DNA from: a virus | Lineage: Duplodnaviria; Caudoviricetes | Reading direction: 5' to 3' (one strand) | Virus record (IMG/VR): IMGVR_UViG_3300037463_000060 | Location: 1 to 43,819 of that record | DNA length: 43,819 nt | Part shown: positions 1 to 26,665 of the stretch, piece by piece | Numbering within the stretch: the stretch's first letter is position 1 | Layout of the letters: the number at the start of each line of letters is the position of its first letter | The notes under the pieces: generated by a model | The model's input: only the letters and a program-made list of their open reading frames with translations | Databases searched by the model: none | Told to the model about the DNA's origin: nothing | Made by a program: the position numbers and the translations under genes

Positions 1-1950
1 ATGAGCGCCGACGGAACGCCCCCGACCCATACCATCAACCTCCCCCTCGCCGACCTCCGCGAGAGCCGCTGGCAGCCGGCCGGGCGCTCGGAGCGGAACA
101 TCGACGAGATCGCCGCGAGCATCGCCGCCCATGGCATCCTCGAGCCGCTCACCGTCCGGCAGGTGGACGGGCACCACGAGATCGTGAAGGGCCATCGCCG
201 ACGCGCTGGTGGGCTCCGGGCCGGCCTCGTCGAAGTCCCGTGCGTCGTCCGCGAGCTCACCGACGAGAAGGCCCTGGAGCTCTTCGTGGTCTCGAACGGC
301 CACGAGGAGATGACGCCGGTCGAAGAGGCCGACGTGTTCGGGCGCGCGCAGGCCGACTTCGGGTGGACGCCCGAGAAGATCGCCGACCGGTTCGGGAAGA
401 GCCCGGCGACCGTCCACAAGCGCCTCATCCTGCTCCGGCTGATCGAGCCGGCGCGGGCGGCGCTGGTGGCCAAGAAGCTCCTCGTCGGCGTCGCCGAGCA
501 CCTCGCCCTCCTTCCGGAGGCCGATCAGGCCCAGGCGGTCCCGAAGCTCACCGCGGGCGAGGAGCCGGCCGGGCGCCGGGTCGGGCTGCAGATCCTGTCG
601 GCTTATCAGCGCTCGCTCGCCGACGTACCGTGGCAGCTTGGGGACGCGCTCCTCGTCGCAAAGGCGGGCGCGTGCACGGCATGCCCCAAGAGGACAGGCG
701 CCCAGCTCCCGCTCCTCGCGGATCAGGCACCCGACGGCGACCGCCTTGACGCGGCTTGCTTCGACGAGAAGTGGAAGGCCGAGGCGGGCGAGGAGCAGGC
801 CGAGGAAGAAGCCCGGCCGTCGCGCTCGAAGGCGCGGAAGAGCGCGCCGCCCCCCGGCCCGGTAACGCGCCCCGAACCGCTGGCGCCGCCGGTCGACCTG
901 GAGAAGATCGCCACCGAGGCCGCGATCAAGCGCGCGGTCGCCGAGGTCGTCGCTGCGGCGGGCAGGAAAAAGAAGATCGACGTGAAGGCGCTCCGCTTCC
1001 TCGTGAGTCTCTTTGCGCGGGCGGCCTACGACGAGGCGATCGACGAGATCGCGATCCACCGCATCGGGCCCGGGCTTAGCGCGGGCGAGCAGCGCAACGG
1101 CATCTTGTCGGTGATCGCGGCTGAGGAGCGGGAGCCCGCCCTGTATGCGATCGGTGTCGAGCTCGCGGTCGTCGGCGACCCGAACTTGACAAGCCTCTCC
1201 GAGGACGGGTGCCTCGTTCTTGCGGCGCGCCATTTCGGGGTCGACCTCGACGCCATCCGGGCCGAGGAGCTCAAGCGCCTGAAGAAGGAGGCGAAGGCGG
1301 ACAAGCCGATCCCCGGTGAACGGGCGGTATCGACGCCCATGGAGCGAGTGCGCGAGGAGGAGGAGGCGGCGGTGGGCCGGTGCCGGGTGTGCCGGTGCAC
1401 GGACGAAACGCCGTGCGCGGGGGCGACCGGCCCGTGCGGATGGGCGAACGTCGAGGAGGATCTGTGCTCGGTGTGCGCGGACATCCTGGACGGCTTCGAG
1501 GATCGGCTTGAGCACCGCGCGCGACCGGCGAGCGAGGTGATCGACGAGATCCTCGAGACCACCGACAGCCCCGGCGTGTCGCGGGAGAGGGTGCTGCGGG
1601 CGCTGGACGATCTTAAGAAGGTCGGCGTCGTGGTCTTAGCCGACGTGGACCCGAAGAGCGGCGCGATCCTCGCCCTGGCCAAGAAGCCGAAGCCCGTCCC
1701 GAAGGAGCCAGACCGCGAGCGCTCCGAGGTCGAGAAGACAGCCCGGTCGAAGAGCGTGAAGTCCGATGTGCACATCCTCGTGAAGCTGCCCACCGGCAAG
1801 AGGGGGAAGCCGCCGGTGAAGAAGGTGTGCGAGCTCGACGAGGTGCCCGCGGACGCGACGCCGACGAACCGGCCCGATGATTCGACGTGCACCGGGTGCC
1901 GGACGGCGTGGGCACTCACCGAGCAGACGCGGAAGGAAGCGGGGCTATGA
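1..1950 (+). CDS. ParB/RepB/Spo0J-family protein with long C-terminal extension containing Cys clusters
   Basis: IAASIAAHGILEPLTVR, EIVKGHRR (GxRR motif), VPCVVRE, TPVEEA plus HTH (WTPEKIADRFGKSPATVHKRL); later CTACPK and CRVCRC...C...C...CSVC. Confidence 0.85.
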   Translation: MSADGTPPTHTINLPLADLRESRWQPAGRSERNIDEIAASIAAHGILEPLTVRQVDGHHEIVKGHRRRAGGLRAGLVEVPCVVRELTDEKALELFVVSNGHEEMTPVEEADVFGRAQADFGWTPEKIADRFGKSPATVHKRLILLRLIEPARAALVAKKLLVGVAEHLALLPEADQAQAVPKLTAGEEPAGRRVGLQILSAYQRSLADVPWQLGDALLVAKAGACTACPKRTGAQLPLLADQAPDGDRLDAACFDEKWKAEAGEEQAEEEARPSRSKARKSAPPPGPVTRPEPLAPPVDLEKIATEAAIKRAVAEVVAAAGRKKKIDVKALRFLVSLFARAAYDEAIDEIAIHRIGPGLSAGEQRNGILSVIAAEEREPALYAIGVELAVVGDPNLTSLSEDGCLVLAARHFGVDLDAIRAEELKRLKKEAKADKPIPGERAVSTPMERVREEEEAAVGRCRVCRCTDETPCAGATGPCGWANVEEDLCSVCADILDGFEDRLEHRARPASEVIDEILETTDSPGVSRERVLRALDDLKKVGVVVLADVDPKSGAILALAKKPKPVPKEPDRERSEVEKTARSKSVKSDVHILVKLPTGKRGKPPVKKVCELDEVPADATPTNRPDDSTCTGCRTAWALTEQTRKEAGL

Positions 1951-2408
1951 TCACCGAGCGCTCCCAGCTCGATGCCATCGCCGCCGTGCTCCCGAAGAGG
2001 GTGATCGCAGGCGAGGCTGGGCCGTACCTTGAGCGCTACACGCTGCGCACGTTCCCGGACGGCGCGCAGATATACCTCCACCACTTCCTGCGCGGCGACG
2101 AGGACGAGGCGCTCCACAGCCACCCTTGGGCGGGAGAGAGCCTCGTTCTGGCAGGCGGGTACCGCGAAGAGCGGCGGGTGGAGGGCGACGGGATCGAGGT
2201 GCGGACGCTGGGGCCCGGCGATCGGAGCATCATCGCCCCCGACACGTTCCATCGCGTCGATCTGCTCGACGGGGAGACGTGCTGGACGCTGTTCTCCGCC
2301 GGCCCGCGCGTCCAGTCGTGGGGGTTTTGGGACCGGCGGACGAAGGTCTTCACGCCGTGGACCGAGTACCTCGCGAAGCGCGGCCTGTTTTCGATGGGTG
2401 GCCCATGA
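1947..2408 (+). CDS. Cupin-like phage protein
   Basis: ATG overlaps the ParB stop (ATGA); LHHF...LHSHPW...SLVLAGGYREE...FHRV His pattern resembles cupin folds. Confidence 0.6.
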   Translation: MITERSQLDAIAAVLPKRVIAGEAGPYLERYTLRTFPDGAQIYLHHFLRGDEDEALHSHPWAGESLVLAGGYREERRVEGDGIEVRTLGPGDRSIIAPDTFHRVDLLDGETCWTLFSAGPRVQSWGFWDRRTKVFTPWTEYLAKRGLFSMGGP

Positions 2409-10507: not shown

Positions 10508-11065
10508 CTAGAAGGGCGGGGCCGTATCCATCGTGGGTGCGGGCGCGGGCTTCTTCGATACCGGCCGAGGTCTCGCGGGGCTCGGCTTGGCCGGCGCCTT
10601 TTGCCGCTCGGCCTCCGCCTGCTGCGCAACCTGCACTGCGCCCTCTGCCACCGACAACGCGCGCGTCATGTCGTACGGGCCCGCCTTGGGGGGCGTTTGC
10701 CCGCTCATGACCCCAAACACCACCAAACCCACGAAGAGCATGGCGGACACCACAAACAGCTTCTTCCGGCGCCTCCCCGCCTCCTCTGCCTCCGCCGCCG
10801 CACAGGCGGAATGCAGCCACATTGGGCCGTGCCACACGTGCGGATCGTCGCTGAAAGTACCCCCGCAGTGTGGACAGTAAATTTGAGGCGTCCCGGGCAC
10901 CGAGGCCGCCCGTGGGCGCCCGCCTCCCGATCCCGCCCGCTGCCCTATCCGCAGGCCGCCCACTCCCCAAGACCACCCCACGCCTGATTTGGAGAGGTTC
11001 AGGCGAAACCCGCCCGGGCCCTTGATGCTCTTCCCGAACGAGAAGAACGACTTCTTGCGCGCCAT
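10508..11065 (-). CDS. DUF4236-like membrane protein (moron)
   Basis: FSFGKSIKGPGGFRLNLSKSGVGWSWGVGGLRIG signature, CPHC, one transmembrane helix. Confidence 0.8.
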   Translation of the reverse strand: MARKKSFFSFGKSIKGPGGFRLNLSKSGVGWSWGVGGLRIGQRAGSGGGRPRAASVPGTPQIYCPHCGGTFSDDPHVWHGPMWLHSACAAAEAEEAGRRRKKLFVVSAMLFVGLVVFGVMSGQTPPKAGPYDMTRALSVAEGAVQVAQQAEAERQKAPAKPSPARPRPVSKKPAPAPTMDTAPPF

Positions 11066-11143
11066 GCGCGGGAGGCTTGCCGTCGCCTACCCCGCCGTCA
11101 ATCCAGGGCGCGCGTTCAGGGAGCCCCGTGCCGTCCATTTGTG

Positions 11144-11172
11144 TTGACGGGGTTGGCGTCTGCTGGCACCGT
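11144..11172 (+). promoter_or_regulatory. Sigma70-type promoter, probably giving a leaderless transcript
   Basis: TTGACG, 17-bp spacer, TGg-CACCGT, then GTG start 6 nt downstream at 11179. Confidence 0.55.
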
Positions 11173-11178
11173 TGGTGC

Positions 11179-11400
11179 GTGGGCAGAGAGAAAACGATCC
11201 AACTCGCTCTCCGCGTCACGCCTGCCTTCGCCGCCCGGATCGACAAGATCGCGGCCGCGATGAGCGCTCGTGCGTTTGGCGCTGAGATTACGAGATCCGA
11301 GGCCGCCCGCCTCACCATGGAGAGAGGAGCACCGTCAATCGAGGCCGAGCTCGGCCTGGCCGCGCCGGAGGCAGATAAGCCACCCAAGCGCTCAAAATAA
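11179..11400 (+). CDS. Ribbon-helix-helix (Arc/CopG-like) regulator
   Basis: KTIQLALRVTPAFAARIDKIA...ITRSEAARLTMERG fits the strand-helix-helix pattern. Confidence 0.7.
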   Translation: MGREKTIQLALRVTPAFAARIDKIAAAMSARAFGAEITRSEAARLTMERGAPSIEAELGLAAPEADKPPKRSK

Positions 11401-11474
11401 AGGCGGGGCCGAGCCGGGAGCCTAACCCCGGCCCGAACCCCTAGATCGTCACCTTGCAGAAGAAGGTTCCGACC

Positions 11475-11972
11475 ATGAAAACACGTGTATCGAAAGGCCG
11501 CGCTGCGGCCAAGACCCCCGCTCGTAAAACGTCCCGCCGCGTCGCCGAGAAGCGCCCCGGCGCGCTCGCCGACGTGGACACCCCTCTCGCCTCCGGCGCC
11601 GCCGTCGCCGTCCTCAACGCGCTCGCTCCCGAGGCCGAGGGGGAAGAGGCGCAGGGCGACGTTCTCGACCTCGACAGGGCGCTCGGGCGCTCCGGCGACT
11701 CGCCGAGCGGAGGGCGTCTCCCCCGCCTCGTCCCTGCCGCCGCGATCGAGACGTGCACGATGGAGGAGCTGCTCCTCATGGCCATCGCGGGCGAGAAGGG
11801 GGAGATGGCTCAGGAACGCCCGCTTGAGGCGATCTCGCTGCGGCTCGCGGTCGAGCTTCAGGCGATCACCTCGACGACCGGTCTCGAGGCCGACGTGGCC
11901 GGAGACCTGATCTTCCACGCGGCGGGCCGCGCCCGCGTCCTCGCGGAGTTGATCCGCCGAGCGGGGAGGTGA
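11475..11972 (+). CDS. Hypothetical protein with basic disordered N-terminus
   Basis: AAGG RBS, ATG at 11475, GC-rich third positions. Confidence 0.6.
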   Translation: MKTRVSKGRAAAKTPARKTSRRVAEKRPGALADVDTPLASGAAVAVLNALAPEAEGEEAQGDVLDLDRALGRSGDSPSGGRLPRLVPAAAIETCTMEELLLMAIAGEKGEMAQERPLEAISLRLAVELQAITSTTGLEADVAGDLIFHAAGRARVLAELIRRAGR

Positions 11973-11978
11973 GGCGTC

Positions 11979-12815
11979 ATGACCGAACTCGTGAAATTTG
12001 ACTTCCACGGCGACGCGCTCGACGTGGTGAAGGACGACGGCGGCAAGGTGTGGGTCGGCGTGCGGCGCGTGTGCGACGTGCTCGGTCTCGACGTCGAGGG
12101 GCAGCGTAAGAAGCTGAAATCCAAGGCCTGGGCAGGAGCGGAGATGATCTCCGTCCCTTCGCCGGGAGGCGCCCAGACCACCTACTGCATCGACCTCGAC
12201 AGTCTGCCGATGTGGCTGGCCACGATCGAGGTGGCCAAGGTGAACGCGTCGATCCGGGAGAAGCTCGTCCGCTACCAGAAGGAGGCCGCGCGCGTCCTCG
12301 CCGAGCACTTCCTGCCCCGTCCGTCCGGCCTCGCCAAGGTGGAGGCGCCCGCCGTCGACCTTGCCCCGATCGTTACCCGGCTCGACGTGTTCGAGGCCAA
12401 GCTTGACGCCCTGGCCGAGGGATCCGGCCAGATCGCCGCCGGGGTCTCCCTCACCCTGACGGTCCTCCGCACCCAAGACGAGCGGGTCACCGACCTCGCC
12501 CGCGTCCTCGCGGAGACCCGAGAGCACCTCGCGAAAACCGCCGTCCAGAAGGGCATGATCAGCGAGGAGCAGGCCGCGCACCTCCGGCGCGAGGTCGACG
12601 CGCTTGCCAAGGCCTGGACCGAGGCGGGTTGGGCGCGCAGCGTCAAGGCCGCCTTCGGGGAGATCGTTCAGGAGTTCTTCGGCTACGTCGGCTGGGGCCG
12701 CATCGGGGAGCGCATTGACGGGCTCCCCGAGGACAGGTTCCCCCGAGCGCAGGCCTTCATCGAGGCCCAGCGCCGGGCCCTCCGCCGCAGGGGTGGGCCG
12801 AGGAAATCCGTTTAG
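11979..12815 (+). CDS. ant: Phage antirepressor with P22 Ant N-terminal-type domain
   Basis: FDFHGDAL...VWVGVRRVCDVLGLDVEGQRKKL...CIDLDSLPMWLATI...KV...IREKLVRYQKEAARVLAEHF. Confidence 0.85.
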   Translation: MTELVKFDFHGDALDVVKDDGGKVWVGVRRVCDVLGLDVEGQRKKLKSKAWAGAEMISVPSPGGAQTTYCIDLDSLPMWLATIEVAKVNASIREKLVRYQKEAARVLAEHFLPRPSGLAKVEAPAVDLAPIVTRLDVFEAKLDALAEGSGQIAAGVSLTLTVLRTQDERVTDLARVLAETREHLAKTAVQKGMISEEQAAHLRREVDALAKAWTEAGWARSVKAAFGEIVQEFFGYVGWGRIGERIDGLPEDRFPRAQAFIEAQRRALRRRGGPRKSV

Positions 12816-16739: not shown

Positions 16740-18632
16740 TCACCCAAGCGCCAAAGAAATGGTCGCCTCGATCGCGTTGATCGTGCCGAGCGGCACCACG
16801 TAGATCGCGGCCTTCACGAGCTTCGTTCCCACGCCAGAAACCACCGAGGTCGGGTCAATGACGATGTACGCGTCCGAGCAGTGCTTTCCGGCGTACACGT
16901 CGCGCAGGGACTTCGTAATCGACGCATCGATCCGCTTCTTCTCGTTCGGGTCGATAATGACGGTCCCGGGCTTGGCGGCGACATTCTGGCCGAGCCGCGC
17001 GTCGAGCAGCTTATGGGCCGACTTCCGAACCGCATCGACCACGCGCCCGTTCTGGATCGTCTCGTAATCGCTCTCGTCGGGTGCGAGCGTGACCGCGAGC
17101 GAGGGCTGAATCCCGCTCGGGCGCGTCATGGGGGCCCACAGCCTGACCGGCGTGCACACCCCCGCGAACGACTCGTCCACCGCTCGCGGGAGCACGTCGG
17201 TCCCGTTCGCGGCGCGGATCGCCCCGCGGATGGTGCCGAAGTCGGCGGTGTTGATGGGGTTTGTCGCGAGTTTTGTGCGAGCGAGCCGAGGGGCGAGCGC
17301 GAACGAAGCCGGGCGTGCCGTGGTCGCCCCCACGACGAGCTGCGAGGGCAGGTACATCGAGGCGCAGAGGGTCAGGCGCCCGAGCCGACCCGAGGAGCTC
17401 GCGAGCGGGTGCGCGAGGGCGTACGCAGCCGCGTACGCCTGGAGGCTCTCGCCTTCGTTGCGCAGCCTGAAGTGGCCGACGATCCGCACGTCGCGATACT
17501 TCGAAGCAATGTACGCCCCGGCGTCCTCAATGGCGCTCGCCTCGCCGTTGGTCAGGACGGCCCCCGCGATCTCAAGAACGCCGTTGACAGGCACTGTCGA
17601 ATCGCCAGCCAGCTCCAGCGCCTCGACGAGCTTATCGATGTTCCAGCGCGGAGCCTTCGTCGTGAGATAGAACATGTCGCCCGCGACCACATCGCCAGCG
17701 ACGGCCGGATCGCTCGTGAGGACGTTCGCGCTGTCCACCGCGCCGTGGAGGCTGCTCGCGGTCCGGAGGGTGTGCCCCGAGTTCACCGTCGATCCGTCGC
17801 CGAAGAAGATGGCGACGAAATCCTCGATGAACTCGATCGCTGCGGCGCGCGTGGCCGGCGCGACGAGCGCGGTCAGCGCGGTCTGCGCGGTCGTGTCAGC
17901 GGCCCCGTGGATGCCCGGCGTACCGCTCACCTTCACCACGTGCGCGAGGGCGACCGTCCTAAGGTCCGCGCAGCACGTCAGGGCGGACGCGTCGTTCGTC
18001 GGGGCCGTGATGGTGTACGGGCCGGCGTCGGCGCTCCCATGCACGCTCCCCACGAGCGCCACGTGGTCGAGCACCTGGGCCCGCACATCCACGAGCCGCG
18101 CGAGGAGCAGCGGTAGCTCCTGCCCGACAAGGTTGTATTTACCCCCCCCGAACGGGAGCGTGATGGACGTGTCCGTCCCGAGCTCGCGCTCCCCGGAGTA
18201 CTTGTTCCCGTTGTCGAGGCTGTACCTGTATTTGATACCGGTGGCGCCGATCGTGCCCCCCACCGGGAATTCAATGACCGGCTGCCAGTCGTCGCCCGGC
18301 TTCACCGAGCCGTCGCCCGTCGCCGTGAACCCGGCCCCCTGGGCTTCGACGGTGATCGCCCCGTACACGCCGGCGGCCTGATCGGTCGGATCGACGCGCA
18401 GGAACGTCACCGAGTCGACCTCGTTGTTGAGCGCGTAGAGCGCGGCCTCCACCCCGTCGCCGTGGCCGAATGTGGATTTGAGGTCCGTGCTGTTCGACGT
18501 CGTGAACGGCGTGAGCGGGCCGGTGGAGGCCAGCCCGAGGACCCAAAACACCCCGTCATCCGGAGCAATGGACCCAGCGGAGAGGCCGCCGTCCCGGACC
18601 TGAATCTCGACAGAAGGGGGCGACAAACTCAT
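16740..18632 (-). CDS. Contractile tail sheath protein (DUF2586-like)
   Basis: PSVEIQVRDGGL...VLGLASTGP...FGHG at the N-terminus; SDYETIQNGRVVD...YVVPLGTINAIEATISL at the C-terminus. Confidence 0.85.
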   Translation of the reverse strand: MSLSPPSVEIQVRDGGLSAGSIAPDDGVFWVLGLASTGPLTPFTTSNSTDLKSTFGHGDGVEAALYALNNEVDSVTFLRVDPTDQAAGVYGAITVEAQGAGFTATGDGSVKPGDDWQPVIEFPVGGTIGATGIKYRYSLDNGNKYSGERELGTDTSITLPFGGGKYNLVGQELPLLLARLVDVRAQVLDHVALVGSVHGSADAGPYTITAPTNDASALTCCADLRTVALAHVVKVSGTPGIHGAADTTAQTALTALVAPATRAAAIEFIEDFVAIFFGDGSTVNSGHTLRTASSLHGAVDSANVLTSDPAVAGDVVAGDMFYLTTKAPRWNIDKLVEALELAGDSTVPVNGVLEIAGAVLTNGEASAIEDAGAYIASKYRDVRIVGHFRLRNEGESLQAYAAAYALAHPLASSSGRLGRLTLCASMYLPSQLVVGATTARPASFALAPRLARTKLATNPINTADFGTIRGAIRAANGTDVLPRAVDESFAGVCTPVRLWAPMTRPSGIQPSLAVTLAPDESDYETIQNGRVVDAVRKSAHKLLDARLGQNVAAKPGTVIIDPNEKKRIDASITKSLRDVYAGKHCSDAYIVIDPTSVVSGVGTKLVKAAIYVVPLGTINAIEATISLALG

Positions 18633-20036: not shown

Positions 20037-21017
20037 TCAGAACGTGACCTTGTGAAGGCACATCGGCTCGCCGTACCGCATTGCGACCCGGCCGTCTTTT
20101 TGCCATTCGGTCCGATTCGACCGCCCGAGGATCACCTGATCGGCCTTCGTGTACATGCGCATTTGGATCATCTCGCGGATGACCCGAACGAACGGCGTCT
20201 CGTACGGGGAGCGCCCCATCACGCGGCACTCGACGTAATAGCTGTCCTCCATCGGGTGGTCCTGCATGAGCCGGACGCCGCCGTCCCAGCCGAAGGCATT
20301 CTTAAAGGCCTTCTGGGCGAGCACGTTCGTCCTCGAGCCGTTGATGCCGTCCGCCTGCAGGTTGCCGATGATCTCGGCGCCGAGGAGCTCCGCTCCGGCG
20401 AACTCCGTCTGGGGGTTCAGCCAGAGCCGGAACGGCCGGATATACCCGTTCGGGAGGTTGTGCGTCTTGAGCGTGCCCTTGATGTCCGCCGTCAGCGCCT
20501 TCAGGCCGGCTGGCGTGAGGTCGTACCCCGACCACAAGTTTTTATTGGTACCCTCGTCCGCGTTCATGAGGACCGGGTGGTTCGCGGAGAAGAAAGGAAC
20601 GTCGTCGTAGCCTTTAAGGACGGTGCCCTGCGCGAGGAGCTCGAGCAGGAGCACCTGCCAGAACAGCGCCTCGTAGTTCGCGATGTCGCGCGCCCACGCC
20701 GCCGCGTGATCCAGATCGTCGTCGGCGTAATCGTGGTTGTGCACTTCGAGCGAAGCCTCGTAATCGTCCGACGTGAGCTCGGCCGAGGCGTCCACCTGAT
20801 CGTCATAGCGGCGCGAAGCGCCCTCGGCGCTCTTGCGGAGGACCGCTATGCTCTGGATCCAGTTCATCACGCGCTTCCGCTTCGTGATGGTGAAATCGGA
20901 GGTCAGCTCGTCCCACCAGAGGATATTCGGGTCGGAGAGGAGTTGGTCGTACTTGTTCACCTGGACGGCCACGAGCTCGTCCTGCGTCGTAATGACGTTA
21001 TCGATGTTGAACTCCAC
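20037..21017 (-). CDS. Major capsid protein, Mu gpT-like
   Basis: GGAGG RBS and GTG at 21017; W...LRK...DYEASLEV...DYADDDL and GYDDVPFFSANHPV motifs. Confidence 0.85.
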   Translation of the reverse strand: MEFNIDNVITTQDELVAVQVNKYDQLLSDPNILWWDELTSDFTITKRKRVMNWIQSIAVLRKSAEGASRRYDDQVDASAELTSDDYEASLEVHNHDYADDDLDHAAAWARDIANYEALFWQVLLLELLAQGTVLKGYDDVPFFSANHPVLMNADEGTNKNLWSGYDLTPAGLKALTADIKGTLKTHNLPNGYIRPFRLWLNPQTEFAGAELLGAEIIGNLQADGINGSRTNVLAQKAFKNAFGWDGGVRLMQDHPMEDSYYVECRVMGRSPYETPFVRVIREMIQMRMYTKADQVILGRSNRTEWQKDGRVAMRYGEPMCLHKVTF

Positions 21018-21018
21018 C

Positions 21019-21444
21019 TCACACCTCCGACAGCGGCTCGACCGCGATTTTGCCGTCCGCCTCGATCGTCCAGACCCGCCCCGCGAGCGTCCTCGCTCCG
21101 CTCTTATCGTCCGGGGAGACCGTGTTTGCCGCCGACCAGTAGACGAGGCCGAAGACGTTCGCCGCCCCAACCGGCGCCGTCCCATCGTTCTTGAGCAGCC
21201 AGCAAAAGACCTCGCGGCCGGTGTCCACGAAGAACTTCTTCGCGCCGTTGGCGCCGCCCGTGTTGTCCACGGTGGTCCTCGCGCGGCCCAGCGGCACGAT
21301 GCCGACGGCGGCCGTGATCGTCTTGGCGTAGCCGTTGCCGCCGCTGTATGACCCGACGTGATCGCCCTTGGTGACGATCGTATTCGCGGCGATCCCGACC
21401 TCGACCTCGTAAAGGCGGCGCTTGCCGCCAAGCGTGACGTTCAT
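21019..21444 (-). CDS. Head decoration / capsid cement protein
   Basis: 141 aa between scaffold and capsid; IAANTIVTKGDHV...GR...VDNTGGANG...VYW...TV...AGRV. Confidence 0.7.
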   Translation of the reverse strand: MNVTLGGKRRLYEVEVGIAANTIVTKGDHVGSYSGGNGYAKTITAAVGIVPLGRARTTVDNTGGANGAKKFFVDTGREVFCWLLKNDGTAPVGAANVFGLVYWSAANTVSPDDKSGARTLAGRVWTIEADGKIAVEPLSEV

Positions 21445-22478
21445 TGCATTGCCTCACTTGCCAGAGGGAACTCGTTGCGCGGGTCCCAGCCGGTCGCCCG
21501 CTTCGCCCGGTACTCCTTCGGGGTCATGGACCCGAGGGTGAAATACCTCCCGCCGCCCCCCGGCTTGTCGATGATCGCGGGGCCCACCTTCGGCTCGGTG
21601 GCCTGCCCCATCGCCTTCGCGACGACCAGGCGGTCGCTCTTCTTCGAGAGCAGCTTGCTGCTGGTGTTGTTCGCCCCGCCGCGGGGCGCCTCGTCGAGGG
21701 GCGCGGCGGGCCGGGCCTGCGGCGCTCTGGGCGCGGGCGCCGGGAGCTCGATGGAGGCGATGTATTCGGCGGCCGACTCGACCGTTTTGCAGTGCGTCTT
21801 GACGTACGAGCGGTGCTTCTCGGTCAGGTCCGGCCGCGCTCCAAAGAGCACCTCCACGCTCTTCGCGTACCCCGGCTCGAGAGGCGCGACGGCTGCCGCG
21901 GCGGGCACAACCGGCTCCACCGGCAAGACTTCGGTCGCGTCGTCCGGCGCCGCACTCGCCTCGGCCAATACAGGCTCGATGAGAGCCTTGGCCTCAGGCG
22001 GCAGATCCGCCACACCCATCAGCCCCTGGCAAAGGGCCAGCAGGAGCTTCGTTGCGTCCATTTTTGATCTCTCCTTCGCCCTACTGGGCAATTGCCGAAC
22101 CGCCTTTGCGAATGATTTCGCCCGCGGTGTATTCCGAATTTTTACCATCGCCGGCGCGAGCACCTCGGCCAGGTACTCGTGGGCGTCCACCTCTCGGCCA
22201 GCCTCGAGCAGCGCGTGCATCCGGGCCCCGAGGCAGTGCACTGCCTCGTGCGCGCAGGTGTCCTGGAACTCGATTGGATTGGCGGCCGCGCGGCGAGCAT
22301 CGATCAGCACGTCCGACTTCTTCGCGCCACCATCGACCGAGTTCAGGCCGAAGAGTGGGTTACCTTCGCGGTCCCGTAGGTCGTTTACAAACTGCCACGA
22401 TACTTCCCAGCCGTTGGCCGGCGTGAGCCCGAGCAGCTCGCACCAGTACGCCATTTCCCTGTCCAGGTCCGGGATCAC
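21441..22478 (-). CDS. Putative prohead protease-scaffold fusion with HExxH metallopeptidase N-terminal domain; nested scaffold start at 22061
   Basis: GGAGGG RBS and GTGA coupling to the portal; TCAHEAVHCL and a later HEYLAE; internal GAAGGAG RBS before MDATKLL...; Ala/Pro/Glu-rich C-terminal part. Confidence 0.7.
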   Translation of the reverse strand: MIPDLDREMAYWCELLGLTPANGWEVSWQFVNDLRDREGNPLFGLNSVDGGAKKSDVLIDARRAAANPIEFQDTCAHEAVHCLGARMHALLEAGREVDAHEYLAEVLAPAMVKIRNTPRAKSFAKAVRQLPSRAKERSKMDATKLLLALCQGLMGVADLPPEAKALIEPVLAEASAAPDDATEVLPVEPVVPAAAAVAPLEPGYAKSVEVLFGARPDLTEKHRSYVKTHCKTVESAAEYIASIELPAPAPRAPQARPAAPLDEAPRGGANNTSSKLLSKKSDRLVVAKAMGQATEPKVGPAIIDKPGGGGRYFTLGSMTPKEYRAKRATGWDPRNEFPLASEAMQ

Positions 22479-24091
22479 GCCGCCCTCCGTCGCAGAGGAC
22501 GCCACGCGACCCGCCAACCCTTCGCCCCGTCCGGCCCGACCTGGACGCCGCGATCACGCTCGACGCCGCACCTGTAACATCGGCCGAAGCCGTGCTCGCA
22601 CGTCTCCATGCGATGCTCGGTCATCTCGGCGGCCAGGCGCACGGCGTGGTCGACGTCCAGCTCGTCGGGCTCGGAGATTCCTCCACTTTCCAGCGCACCG
22701 CCGTTCACGTTCTGAGCTCGGAGGCCGTCGAGGAGGGCCCGCCTCTCCTCGGCCGTGAGGGATCGTATCGCCGCGTGCGCCGCCGCCAGGGCCACGCCGC
22801 CCTCGCTCGCGACGGGGAGCCGGAAGCGGGCCCGGTACTCCTCGGGGTCCGGGCGAAGACGTGGATCTCCCGCCTTCTCGGCGGCGTCCCATTGAGCGAT
22901 AAACGCCTTCATTGCCGATTCGATGGCCTCGGCCTCGGCCTTGCGCGCCTGCGGCGGTGTGGTGTCGTATCCGAGGAGAAGGGGCGAGTCGTCCTCGATC
23001 CATCCCTCCTCGCAGCCCAGCTGGATTATCTGCGGTATGCCTTGCTCATTCAGCGTCCTTGCCAGATCCTGGGCCGTCCTGGCCACCAGATGCGACACGA
23101 TCTGCGCGAATATCTCAGCGTTCGCGAACCCGGGTCCGCCTAGCGACGTGACGATCTGCCCACAGATCCGCATCATGGCACGCCGCTCGACTTTACTCTC
23201 CGCGTCGACGAAGACCTCGCGGCCCTCGGCGCGTGGCTGAAGGAGGTCGACCTTGTGGCCCGGCGTGACGCCGGCGAAACCCATGGTCCACTGCATAACT
23301 GAGCGCCAAAATGGGATCTTCTGGTGCTCTGCCTGCCCCTGCGGCGACGTGGCAATCACGAACGGATTGCCGTATTTCATTATGAACGCGTCGCGGTGCA
23401 TGCCCGCGGCGTCCTCCGAGCACTGATCACGGCCGAGGTCCGCCCAAATGCCGCGGCCCCAAGGATCGATATGTCCGTTGCTGTGGGTCACCCACGTTCC
23501 ACCACCGGGCTCGATCGAGTATAGCTTGTTGTATCCTTGATAAACCCACCTGTTTTCGGCTACGCGGTAGCTCGACCATTGCGGGTCCAGCCGCACCAGC
23601 ATGGGCCATTTCGACCTGGGCGGGCGCACGAACACGGCGTGGCCAAAACCGTCCACAAGATGATCGATGGCCAGCTCTTCGAGCTCGGTTGGCGGGAAGA
23701 TGGTGTCGAAAAGGCCCGGCGTCTTACCCTCGCCCTCGAGCCATTGCCTACCCTGCTCGTTTCCTCGCCAGATTCGCGGAAGACGGGGCACAGAACACCG
23801 CGTGGATAGAAGTCCGCCGACGGTCAGATCGCCTCGGACCCATGCCCCTATCTGGGCAAGGTGGCGCACGTTTCCCGCGTTGGCCTCGTCCTCGGCGTCC
23901 TCGATGTCCTTCCGGAGCCACCGGGTCTGCTTTACGCCGATGGGGGATATCCGCTCGCCACGTCGGCGCCGTCTTACCTCATCCCGCGTCCGCCTCCCCG
24001 TGGGCCCGGGCGGCGCCGAGGGGGGCCGCTGGAGCACCGTCGGTGCGGCGAACGCAGAGAAGGCTCTAGATAGGCGCTCCCCGAGGCTCAT
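22475..24091 (-). CDS. Portal protein (Mu gp29 / DUF935-like)
   Basis: Follows TerL; DLTVGGLLSTR, PWGRGIW...FIMKYGNP, RICGQIVTS...GFANAE. Confidence 0.8.
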   Translation of the reverse strand: MSLGERLSRAFSAFAAPTVLQRPPSAPPGPTGRRTRDEVRRRRRGERISPIGVKQTRWLRKDIEDAEDEANAGNVRHLAQIGAWVRGDLTVGGLLSTRCSVPRLPRIWRGNEQGRQWLEGEGKTPGLFDTIFPPTELEELAIDHLVDGFGHAVFVRPPRSKWPMLVRLDPQWSSYRVAENRWVYQGYNKLYSIEPGGGTWVTHSNGHIDPWGRGIWADLGRDQCSEDAAGMHRDAFIMKYGNPFVIATSPQGQAEHQKIPFWRSVMQWTMGFAGVTPGHKVDLLQPRAEGREVFVDAESKVERRAMMRICGQIVTSLGGPGFANAEIFAQIVSHLVARTAQDLARTLNEQGIPQIIQLGCEEGWIEDDSPLLLGYDTTPPQARKAEAEAIESAMKAFIAQWDAAEKAGDPRLRPDPEEYRARFRLPVASEGGVALAAAHAAIRSLTAEERRALLDGLRAQNVNGGALESGGISEPDELDVDHAVRLAAEMTEHRMETCEHGFGRCYRCGVERDRGVQVGPDGAKGWRVAWRPLRRRAA

Positions 24092-25983
24092 TGATACCCC
24101 CAGAGCGCCTGCAGCGCGTTGTCGGCGGCGGCCATGGGGTTGAACTCAGCCACATCCGGGTCGTCTGTCTCCACCGCCGCGACTAGCGAGCGAGGCGCGG
24201 ACGCTCCCGCTTGGACCGGCTCCGGACGTTGCTCTTCGGGGGCCACGTCGTCGCCATCAACGTCGACCACCGCCAGCTTGCAGGCGTCGAGCCTATTGGG
24301 GCTCCTCCCGAGCGTCTTCCGGAGCGTGTCGTTGTCGACGTACCGAATGACCTCCCATTTCATTCCGGAGGCGCCGTAGGACACCTCGACGCGCGCCCCC
24401 ACGGTCGCCTCGATCTCCGCCTCGAGCTCGCCGTCGGGCGGTATCGCGCCGCCGGCCTTGAGCCATGCCGCGAACCCGTGGGTGAGCTCGTCCCGGCGTT
24501 TATCGAAGAGCTTTCGATTTCGCGGCGGGTGCCCGAACTGGACGCCGATGATCTCCACGTCGTCGCGCGGGTCCTTCGATGCCGCGACGTACCGCCGGAG
24601 CTCCTTCCCGAAGCGGCTGCCCTCGGGGCCGGTCTCGTCGAACACGATGCGCGGGCGGCGCTCGTGCGGCCGGCGCCGCTCCCGCACCATCCCCATAAGA
24701 ATCTCGACGCCCCGGCAGTGGTCCTCCTCGCCGAGCACCTCTGCATAGATCTGCCGGATCTTTCGCCCGCGACGCTCGGCTATGGCCAGCGGATCGCGCG
24801 CGCGCCCGACGTCGACGCCGAACTGCAGCACGCCCGTGCCGTCGTCGGAAGGCGACCATTTCGACTCGGCCTCCCTGACGACCTCGGACCCGACGAACTG
24901 CCCCTCGACGATCGCCGGCGGGATCGCGTCGACGCGCGCGCCAATGAGGTCCGTGCCTTTCCACGCGCGCAGGTTCGCCTCAATGCCATCGCGGTTTGCC
25001 ATCCCCCGCACGGGGCGGTCGTCCACCTGGTGCGGGCAATCAACCAGCCCAGGGGGCCTTTTGTCGGTGCCGCCCGGGAACCTGATCCATCGGCCGTTCT
25101 CGGTGATCGCCCCGTCGCTCCACTCGATTCGCCCTCGGCAATTCGGAGAGAGGCGGGAGCTCCGCTGGACGACCTTGGTGTACCGACCCTTCTCGCTCCC
25201 GAACGCGCGATAAAACCACCCGTGTCGGTAGAGCATATTGCCGTATGCAACGACCTTCCCGCCGCCCGACAGGTTGCCGCCGATGGTATCGCGGGTCGCG
25301 TCGTCGATATCGCTGCTCTCGTCACAATAGAAACGGACCTTCCCGGAGAGCCCGCCCTTGCCGCCGAGCTTTCTGGCCGCGTAGCCACGGACGGCCCGTC
25401 CGTCCGGCGCGTGGAGTCCGCCGGCGGAGGTCTGCGCGTCAATCCAGTCGCTCGCGCGGCCCTTCTCGGGGTGGGCCGGGTCGTTGGGCTCCGACGGGAT
25501 GAGCGGGCTGCAGTTCGAGCAGCGCTCCGGGCGGGGGGTCTCGTCCAGCGGGTCGGCCTCGACGAGGTCGCACCAGGCCTCGTGCGCGGGACGGCAAGCA
25601 GCGCACGGGTAACAGGCGCTGGTCGCCGCGATCGACAGGCGCGGCCAGATCGCCTCGTCGATCCATTCGAGCTTCGGGCCGTAAATAAACCCATTCAGCT
25701 TCGCCTCGGTCGCGAAGTCGAACAGGATAATGACGATGAGTGTCTCGGTTTTGCCCTGCTTTTGGCCGGTGCAAACTGCCATCTCGACGCGCTCGCGGGA
25801 GTAATAATCGTCGAGATCCTCTTTTTGATGGCTCGCGAGGCTGCGGATCCCGAGGACGTCGCGGGCGAACTCTACGTGGCGGCCGCGCCACGACGGCGCC
25901 GGCCACATCACCCGGGAGCGACGAGCGCCGGCGGCCCGGAGCTTGTCCCCGATCCGTCGAGCGGCTGCGGGCGCCGCCGTCAC
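24088..25983 (-). CDS. terL: Terminase large subunit
   Basis: GGAGGG RBS and GTG at 25983; Walker A CTGQKQGKT, Walker B FYCDES, YGN, nuclease FGVDVGRARD, C-terminal LGRSPNRLDA. Confidence 0.88.
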   Translation of the reverse strand: MTAAPAAARRIGDKLRAAGARRSRVMWPAPSWRGRHVEFARDVLGIRSLASHQKEDLDDYYSRERVEMAVCTGQKQGKTETLIVIILFDFATEAKLNGFIYGPKLEWIDEAIWPRLSIAATSACYPCAACRPAHEAWCDLVEADPLDETPRPERCSNCSPLIPSEPNDPAHPEKGRASDWIDAQTSAGGLHAPDGRAVRGYAARKLGGKGGLSGKVRFYCDESSDIDDATRDTIGGNLSGGGKVVAYGNMLYRHGWFYRAFGSEKGRYTKVVQRSSRLSPNCRGRIEWSDGAITENGRWIRFPGGTDKRPPGLVDCPHQVDDRPVRGMANRDGIEANLRAWKGTDLIGARVDAIPPAIVEGQFVGSEVVREAESKWSPSDDGTGVLQFGVDVGRARDPLAIAERRGRKIRQIYAEVLGEEDHCRGVEILMGMVRERRRPHERRPRIVFDETGPEGSRFGKELRRYVAASKDPRDDVEIIGVQFGHPPRNRKLFDKRRDELTHGFAAWLKAGGAIPPDGELEAEIEATVGARVEVSYGASGMKWEVIRYVDNDTLRKTLGRSPNRLDACKLAVVDVDGDDVAPEEQRPEPVQAGASAPRSLVAAVETDDPDVAEFNPMAAADNALQALWGYQ

Positions 25984-26105
25984 GCTGCCCTCCACGGCCT
26001 GACGCGCCACAGGAGTCGCCAGGTCACCCGCAGGGGGGAAAGGGTTCTCCGCTCGACGACCTCGGTCAGGCCCACGGACACGATGAACCAGATCCAGCGG
26101 ATCAA
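25980..26105 (-). CDS. Small ORF (41 aa) coupled to both TerS and TerL
   Basis: TTGA overlap with the upstream stop and GTGA overlap with terL. Confidence 0.4.
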   Translation of the reverse strand: MIRWIWFIVSVGLTEVVERRTLSPLRVTWRLLWRVRPWRAA

Positions 26106-26665
26106 GCCGCCCGCCGTTTCTGTGAACCCGCCTCGGCCCGGCGGGCCTGCAACTCCTCGAACCGCTCCGCGATGCGCCACTCAATGCCGTCCGGGGCGTC
26201 CGGGCCGAGCTCCTCCACCACCGCGGCCACCATGTCCTCCGCGAGCCCGTCGAAGGCCTCGTGGTCGTGGATCGGAGCCTGCTCCCGAACGGCGGTCATC
26301 TGCCGATGCAGCGCCCGGAGGGCGTTCGAGACCTGGGCGAGTTGGGTGGGGGTGAGGTCCGGCCGCTCCAACTGCCTCGTCAGGAGCTGGGCTTGGTGGC
26401 GGAGCTCCTCAAGGGGGCCGCGAAGCTCTCGAAGTGGCGGCAACGGGTCGACCGGTGTCTCTCGCCCGCGGGCCTCTCCGGCGACGCCGTTGTGGGAGGC
26501 GGCCTCGAGCCCGAGGCACTTTGCGAGGTGCCGCTCGATCACCTGCCTCGACGCCTTGTGCCTAGCCGCGACCTCGAGCCGCTCTTCGAGCGAGGTTGCC
26601 TCCGAGGCCTCCTTCTCGATTTCGACGCGGTTGGGATGCGCGCAAACGGCGCAGCGGCGGGGCAC
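26102..26665 (-). CDS. Probable terminase small subunit
   Basis: Upstream of terL; CAVCAHP...HTH-like (VAARHKASRQVIERH)...C, then coiled coil. Confidence 0.55.
   Translation of the reverse strand: MPRRCAVCAHPNRVEIEKEASEATSLEERLEVAARHKASRQVIERHLAKCLGLEAASHNGVAGEARGRETPVDPLPPLRELRGPLEELRHQAQLLTRQLERPDLTPTQLAQVSNALRALHRQMTAVREQAPIHDHEAFDGLAEDMVAAVVEELGPDAPDGIEWRIAERFEELQARRAEAGSQKRRAA

Follow-up and report, generated by a model that had tools for sequence, protein, structure and literature searches.

All prohead proteases characterized in tailed phages are, to our knowledge, serine enzymes. Among these is gpI of Mu, which has the herpes/HK97 fold, and C/Nu3 of lambda forms a parallel nested protease-scaffold layout. 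A capsid protein without a delta domain needs a separate scaffold, and P22 and T7 clear their scaffold without any protease. The excerpts of PMC7411985 and PMC7824862 used here are consistent with the serine type, and excerpts of two further papers describe a nested Mu-type layout in KS10 (PMC2628397) and a Mu virion portal that lacks its last 124 residues, a loss ascribed to protease I (PMC11915804).

According to the portions of the sources used here, gp46 of Vibrio phage XM1, a Spartan-like protein, is put forward as one that might act as the prohead protease (PMC10457771), and a jumbo-phage group 1 zincin is suggested to add maturation cuts in phages that keep their serine protease (PMC7824862). 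Neither a demonstrated case of metalloprotease head maturation in a tailed phage nor a description of the gene family presented below was found in the literature, supplements aside. An earlier, sequence-only reading of the DNA studied here had set a metalloprotease against characterized serine proteases only; a claim of no precedent is to be softened, as the idea was anticipated as a proposal in the excerpts of the two papers just cited.

The head module and its slot gene

The window covers the whole of a 43,819-base provirus record (G+C 68%, completeness rating 53%). Searches of Pfam and PHROGs placed on it genes for an integrase, for repressor-type proteins and for replication and, on the minus strand, a contractile-tail late operon. 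The contigs with six relatives of the gene in focus here, gene X, measure 41-45 kb, and given these lengths the provirus may be near-complete despite its rating. Of the relatives, only P0029 has a named source, Sorangium sp. So ce119, where it is a hypothetical protein; it shares about a quarter of its residues with X, and a myxobacterium is a plausible host. The left end (1-2408, plus strand) carries a gene for a 649-aa ParB-domain protein, followed by a match to phrog_4786 (label cysteine dioxygenase, E 6e-41). The tail gene block is interrupted at 10508-12815 by an anti-repressor Ant-like gene on the plus strand and a DUF4236 gene. The tail sheath (DUF2586, 16740-18632) has 630 aa against a family profile of 376-386 positions, implying a large insertion; the sheath of a related locus, L002, has 634 aa.

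The genes of the head module are all on the minus strand. The portal (22475-24091) belongs to Portal_Mu (PF06074, E 2e-18), the decoration/cement-like virion protein of 141 aa (21019-21444) matches phrog_1731 (E 3e-18), and the major capsid protein of 326 aa (20037-21017) is of the Mu gpT type (PF10124, E 3e-9), has no N-terminal delta domain and aligns to gpT of D108 with an offset of 5 residues. Upstream of the portal lies a likely large terminase (24088-26184, start not fixed), labeled from its position and from a Walker-A-like motif that we take to be a terminase sign. This product had no match in Pfam or PHROGs, and shares 54% identity with the gene preceding the portal in the locus L002 and 32% with its counterpart in L011. 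It also has a cysteine-rich insertion (C..C...C..C), which is common to L002 and partly to L011.

Gene X itself (21441-22478, minus strand) encodes 345 aa from a GTG start at 22478, with a zincin domain in frame ahead of a likely scaffold. At its start it shares 4 nt (GTGA) with the end of the portal gene, and at its stop 4 nt (ATGA) with the beginning of the decoration gene, so there is no room for another gene between the three, as the sequence-only reading had held in placing X alone between the portal and the decoration and capsid genes. A reading of gene X as an opposite-strand shadow ORF was rejected.

The order terminase, portal, X, decoration, gpT and gp36-like was found in all three examined loci with a full-length gene, namely L002, L003 and L011. 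As L002 and L003 are near-identical and were counted as one lineage, the proposed portal-X-decoration-capsid synteny is kept in two further lineages. Of these, L011 is distant, with 28% identity to the window in the N-domain of X, 36% in the portal and 28% in the capsid protein. In L002, the decoration protein (L002:5162-5944) carries an additional domain at its C-terminus and is 260 aa long, where that of the window has 141 aa. Past its conserved part, the window portal has a poorly conserved C-terminal tail of 112 residues, a candidate substrate, which compares with 81 residues in L002 and 42 in L011. A Cys/His motif (C..H..C.RC) at the portal C-terminus (22475-22620) is kept in L002 and L003 and absent from L011; a zinc ribbon on the portal tail is possible.

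Cultured phages for comparison were reached through a match of the decoration protein. A Mu-like_Pro gene of 326-349 aa directly precedes the decoration gene in Myxococcus phage Mx4, Pseudomonas phage MP29 and Rhodovulum phage RS1. In D108, the gene before gpT is annotated I, with Z nested in frame, and the I-type genes of all four phages span 326-361 aa. The Mx4 neighbors are homologous to those of the window in pairwise comparison (E 6e-6 for the portal, 2.6e-7 for decoration and 2e-8 for the capsid protein), and those of MP29, RS1 and D108 are homologous by family. The slot gene differs: the Mx4 protease showed no homology to X (E 0.84), and against seven gpI proteins hhalign gave probabilities of 0.2% for the N-half and 1.9% for the C-half, with homology of the latter to gpZ not detectable. 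In six frames, neither PF10123 nor PF04586 was found in the provirus, while Mx4 scores for PF10123 and MuF. No peptidase family was found in the 94 of the 280 listed window ORFs that were scanned against Pfam and PHROGs, in line with the earlier claim that there is no other protease candidate; many ORFs have no family at all, so the provirus could encode an unrecognized protease elsewhere. No serine is invariant among the relatives of gene X, and an identity as an HK97/Mu serine protease was rejected. Since the neighbors are homologous, the slot gene is not and the Mu-type protease is undetected, the pattern is one of non-orthologous displacement. Judged on sequence, gene X is a counterpart of Mu gpI/gpZ in position and layout, yet lies outside that family; the resemblance to gpI/gpZ claimed for the nested layout extends to slot, size and in-frame internal start signal.

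No MuF/gpF gene was found in the head module (20037-24091), nor MuF in a six-frame search of the provirus; Mx4, MP29 and D108 have one. The MuF protein of Mx4 (L005:6118-7527) is fused to a zincin-family domain that is unannotated in the record (Pfam ATLF, E 2e-6, just above the cut-off; HEVGH). This zincin is likely a head-packaged effector.

The predicted N-terminal zincin domain and its relatives

The N-terminal domain of gene X (aa 1-139; 22062-22478) was modeled by AlphaFold2 with a pLDDT of 88.8 and a pTM of 0.83. The model consists of a helix (5-16), three strands (25-31, 44-49 and 54-60), the HExxH helix (68-92) and a helix with the following Glu (96-113). Among 48,161 solved chains, the best fold match was SPRTN (6mdx; rmsd 3.9, 102 aligned) with Z 7.7, a value below the tool's caution line of 8, whereby the zincin call depends on fold and motif jointly. 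Projannalysin (4jix) came second (Z 6.1), followed at Z 5.0-5.7 by aminopeptidase N, YbeY (5.5-5.7), proabylysin (4jiu), selecase (4qhf), HtpX and Wss1 (5xbn). By our own assignment, 10 of the top 11 rows are zincin-fold proteins. The proposed zincin fold was thereby borne out by structure prediction, with the zincin layout and with SPRTN and a minigluzincin as top matches, and the layout agrees with the zincin core as given in the excerpted section 8 of PMC5512222.

Profile searches placed the domain less firmly. The best BFVD match was SprT-like at E 1.9e-3, with none at E 0.001 or below. The cut-off of Pfam SprT-like (PF10263) was not reached: three of 15 members matched, at best with E 0.041, and gene X itself had no match. 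PF18818 appeared only at E 0.052, in two of the 15, and neither Pfam nor PHROGs gave gene X a name. By motif and predicted fold the domain is a zincin, though under every Pfam family cut-off. Designed armadillo repeats, the sole PDB sequence matches of the whole-family profile, were set aside as an artefact of helical composition.

The HExxH motif reported at 22236-22250 is there as HEAVH, residues 77-81, and comprises predicted zinc ligands (H77, H81) and a catalytic Glu (E78); HEYLAE follows at residues 100-105. The gene X family, found in temperate, uncultured phages whose heads are of the Mu type, was gathered by three protein searches and two locus translations, which gave 40 full-length sequences of 345-394 aa, and 33 representatives with less than 90% identity were drawn from these for the conservation count. 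Left out of the count were P0002 (the window's own shorter call), P0027 (a 102-aa fragment, carrying HEAAH), and P0017 and P0018, which start at the internal Met and come from contigs of 957 and 1356 bp, hence not being taken as proof of that start. Only eight of the 345 positions were invariant, namely W12, W24, G44, L45, H77, E78, H81 and E101, and the zinc-protease set H77, E78, H81 and E101 makes up four of them. Conservation of HExxH in homologs, syntenic ones included, thus proved complete (33/33). The gluzincin-like third ligand proposed within HEYLAE was upheld as an invariant Glu on the next helix, and could be refined to E101 (22176-22178; helix 96-113), which lies twenty residues past the second His of HEAVH and is kept in all 33 representatives, as against E105, kept in only 27. 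From composition alone, 0.008 copies of HExxH would be expected in the gene X protein, and two of the 174 window ORFs of at least 100 aa have the motif; a chance motif was rejected.

The nearest relatives of the domain in a language-model search were unnamed viral clusters of 115-158 aa (score 0.95), the nearest named families being SprT-like and M78. One stand-alone relative is a 142-aa gene (L012:7938-8366) on a 118-kb viral contig, flanked by metallophosphoesterase-like and PhoH-like genes, which gave a profile match of E 1e-9 in a test with four sequences. The viral-cluster score and this match suggest that the zincin domain of gene X is likely derived from a family of stand-alone phage zincins. 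No short protein (76-244 aa) closely related to the N-domain was found, none of 50,697 GenBank phages matched the N-domain, the capsid protein or the portal by tblastn, and some locus scans of viral contigs and of GTDB genomes were empty.

The putative nested start and the C-terminal half

The internal start pointed out in the sequence-only reading, i.e. ATG 22061 (codon 140) with the Shine-Dalgarno sequence GAAGGAG 9 nt upstream (22071-22077, minus strand), was recovered as described. With -8.8 kcal/mol, this Shine-Dalgarno ranks first among the 21 internal in-frame starts of the gene and is comparable to those of the operon's real starts. The corresponding signal ranks first of 15 in L011 (-10.3 kcal/mol) and second of 24 in each of L002 and L003, and in 30 of the 33 representatives a Met precedes the alignment column of the domain boundary by no more than four residues. 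Weak RNA structure at the internal start was unsupported (local folding rank 83/325). As far as such signals go, a nested in-frame start for a separate C-terminal product is likely. The product would comprise aa 140-345 (206 aa; 21441-22061, minus strand) and is a likely scaffold.

This product had been described as low-complexity, and the C-half is indeed rich in Ala (17%) and Pro (11%), but it is not simply low-complexity, as short helical units are modeled in it. In the full-length model (pTM 0.44), the confident N-domain is followed by a low-confidence linker (aa 134-139) and by short helical units split by Pro/Ala-rich linkers, which is how a scaffold would look. The capsid protein has no delta domain and would thus require a separate scaffold, for which the C-half is the sole candidate in the head module.

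When the capsid protein was modeled together with aa 195-345 of X, the predicted complex scored 0.66, against 0.00 for the best of three controls; this mark is reached by 116 of 157 solved pairs and two of 215 mismatched ones. At least 17% of the contacts recur across the runs, and the partner pLDDT is at least 54. In the prediction, aa 310-340 of X touch the capsid protein at its N-terminal helix region. Binding of the C-terminal tip of X to the capsid protein is thereby supported as a prediction, with the reservation that the score may mirror likeness to solved scaffold-capsid pairs. Atlas leads for the C-half all stayed below 0.9, among them Mu-like_Pro (0.82; 35% of members) and T4 scaffold (0.80), and no structure in the atlas matched the C-half with a TM above 0.3.

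The two-domain layout of zincin and C-half was present in all 40 full-length sequences, most of which were found by queries with the N-domain and are therefore biased toward it. A scaffold-only profile, with which 7,997 candidate proteins of 113-422 aa were scored, had 14 matches (four of them already in the query). Thirteen of these were fusions with the zincin, and the remaining one, on a contig of 957 bp, consisted of the C-half alone. No other N-terminal partner occurred among them.

Proposed function, rival readings and known systems

We consider it probable that gene X is a prohead protease-plus-scaffold gene in which a recruited phage zincin has non-orthologously replaced the prohead serine protease. 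The gene would give two products: scaffold in abundance, started at ATG 22061, and a minor amount of the full-length protein, started at GTG 22478. Via their common tip (aa 310-340), scaffold and protease-scaffold fusion would dock on the inner side of the capsid protein, and this docking would carry the protease into the prohead. Zn would be bound by H77, H81 and E101, with E78 as general base, and the site would cut the Pro/Ala linkers of the scaffold, while the protease would release itself at the 134-139 linker. The portal tail may be trimmed as well, as by Mu gpI, but this is the weaker part of the model since the tail in L011 has only 42 aa. The zincin would have been recruited from small stand-alone phage zincins by fusion ahead of a scaffold gene. 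We also lean toward the wider view that the X family is a zinc-dependent prohead maturation protease, i.e. a third chemistry beside the herpes/HK97-fold and ClpP-type serine proteases, and that with the fusion of a stand-alone zincin before a scaffold gene the nested gpI/gpZ layout was rebuilt independently.

The idea that a metalloprotease stands in for the serine protease in capsid maturation, already put forward from the sequence, is supported by the occurrence of gpI/gpZ in the same slot, the conserved nested start signal and the predicted capsid contact; catalysis, substrates and a requirement for the enzyme in maturation are what we infer. Weighing against a prohead protease are the modest top Z of 7.7, the lack of detectable homology between the C-half and gpZ, the completeness rating of 53% and the ORFs without a family. 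Moreover, the slot need not hold a protease at all, as P22 and T7 dispense with one. Patchily distributed SprT-like phage proteases are interpreted as host-targeting in the excerpts of PMC7824862, which counts against a role in maturation.

The main rival, which we hold to be unlikely, is that the zincin is a head-packaged cargo: it would be carried by the scaffold, release itself, be kept in the virion and be ejected to cut a host protein, with maturation being protease-free. The Mx4 MuF bears a zincin-family domain, and in a provirus without MuF the scaffold could serve as carrier; stand-alone relatives of the domain are located in non-virion regions. Effector domains are typically swapped among relatives, whereas here the same domain is retained in all 40 full-length sequences. 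Furthermore, the serine protease is missing exactly where the zincin occurs, an N-terminal protease with a nested scaffold mirrors gpI/gpZ, and beyond the motif the X zincin is unrelated to that of Mx4 MuF (hhalign 2.8%; hmmsearch E 0.12). In favor of cargo, according to the excerpted section 8 of PMC5512222, zincins are often carried in phage heads as cargo and occur in phage polyvalent effectors more often than any other domain.

Two further readings are rated less likely than cargo. That the zincin cuts only its own fusion or scaffold (for recycling or release), or acts on the cell side late in infection, with portal and capsid uncut and heads maturing regardless, is improbable. The low-confidence linker directly after the domain (aa 134-139), the variable portal tail (42-112 aa) and a capsid protein without a removable delta domain would fit such self-processing, but the internal start would already give free scaffold, and self-release alone leaves the strict retention of the catalytic residues unexplained. 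Most improbable is a zinc-binding domain that is no peptidase, i.e. a structural one or a YbeY-like nuclease: YbeY is among the fold matches (Z 5.5-5.7), but the best of these are peptidases, and the general-base Glu78 is invariant (33/33), whereas the YbeY active site consists of three His without a general-base Glu at that place.

If the zincin does act as a prohead protease, the maturation step would be independent of a particular chemistry, a nested protease-scaffold gene could emerge by convergence, and annotators should seek metalloproteases in many head modules that apparently have no protease. The gene X module is a compact testable case, with four adjacent genes, one catalytic mutation and one chelator.

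Among known systems, gp46 of XM1 and the jumbo-phage zincin are similar to X in being metalloproteases proposed for head maturation, and are set apart from it by description, as neither is presented as a nested protease-scaffold gene in the excerpts of PMC10457771 and PMC7824862. The metallopeptidases of polyvalent proteins and the MuF-fused zincins (PF18818; Mx4 MuF) share the HExxH zincin core, the Glu on the next helix and the association with the head (PMC5512222, section 8, in excerpt), while X is a fixed two-domain protein without MuF or effector domains. With SprT-like and minigluzincin zincins, X has in common the helix, the three-strand sheet, the HExxH helix and the helix that follows (Z 5.0-7.7), at an identity of only 6-14%; it differs in its predicted third ligand, a Glu, and in being joined to what is likely a capsid scaffold. 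The small stand-alone phage zincins share the pattern W..L.L..W.I...G...A.I.I...T..HE..HC with X but are unfused, and the L012 copy lies outside a head module. Mu/D108 gpI-gpZ (PF10123; also in Mx4, MP29, RS1 and KS10) come closest in arrangement. They occupy the same slot before decoration/gpT in a Portal_Mu module, are of similar length (326-361 aa, against 345 aa in X) and likewise have an enzyme in the N-terminal part and a C-terminal product nested in the same frame. The X module differs from theirs in having no MuF gene between portal and protease, and X itself has no detectable sequence relationship to them in its N- or C-half, with a zincin in the place of the serine protease.
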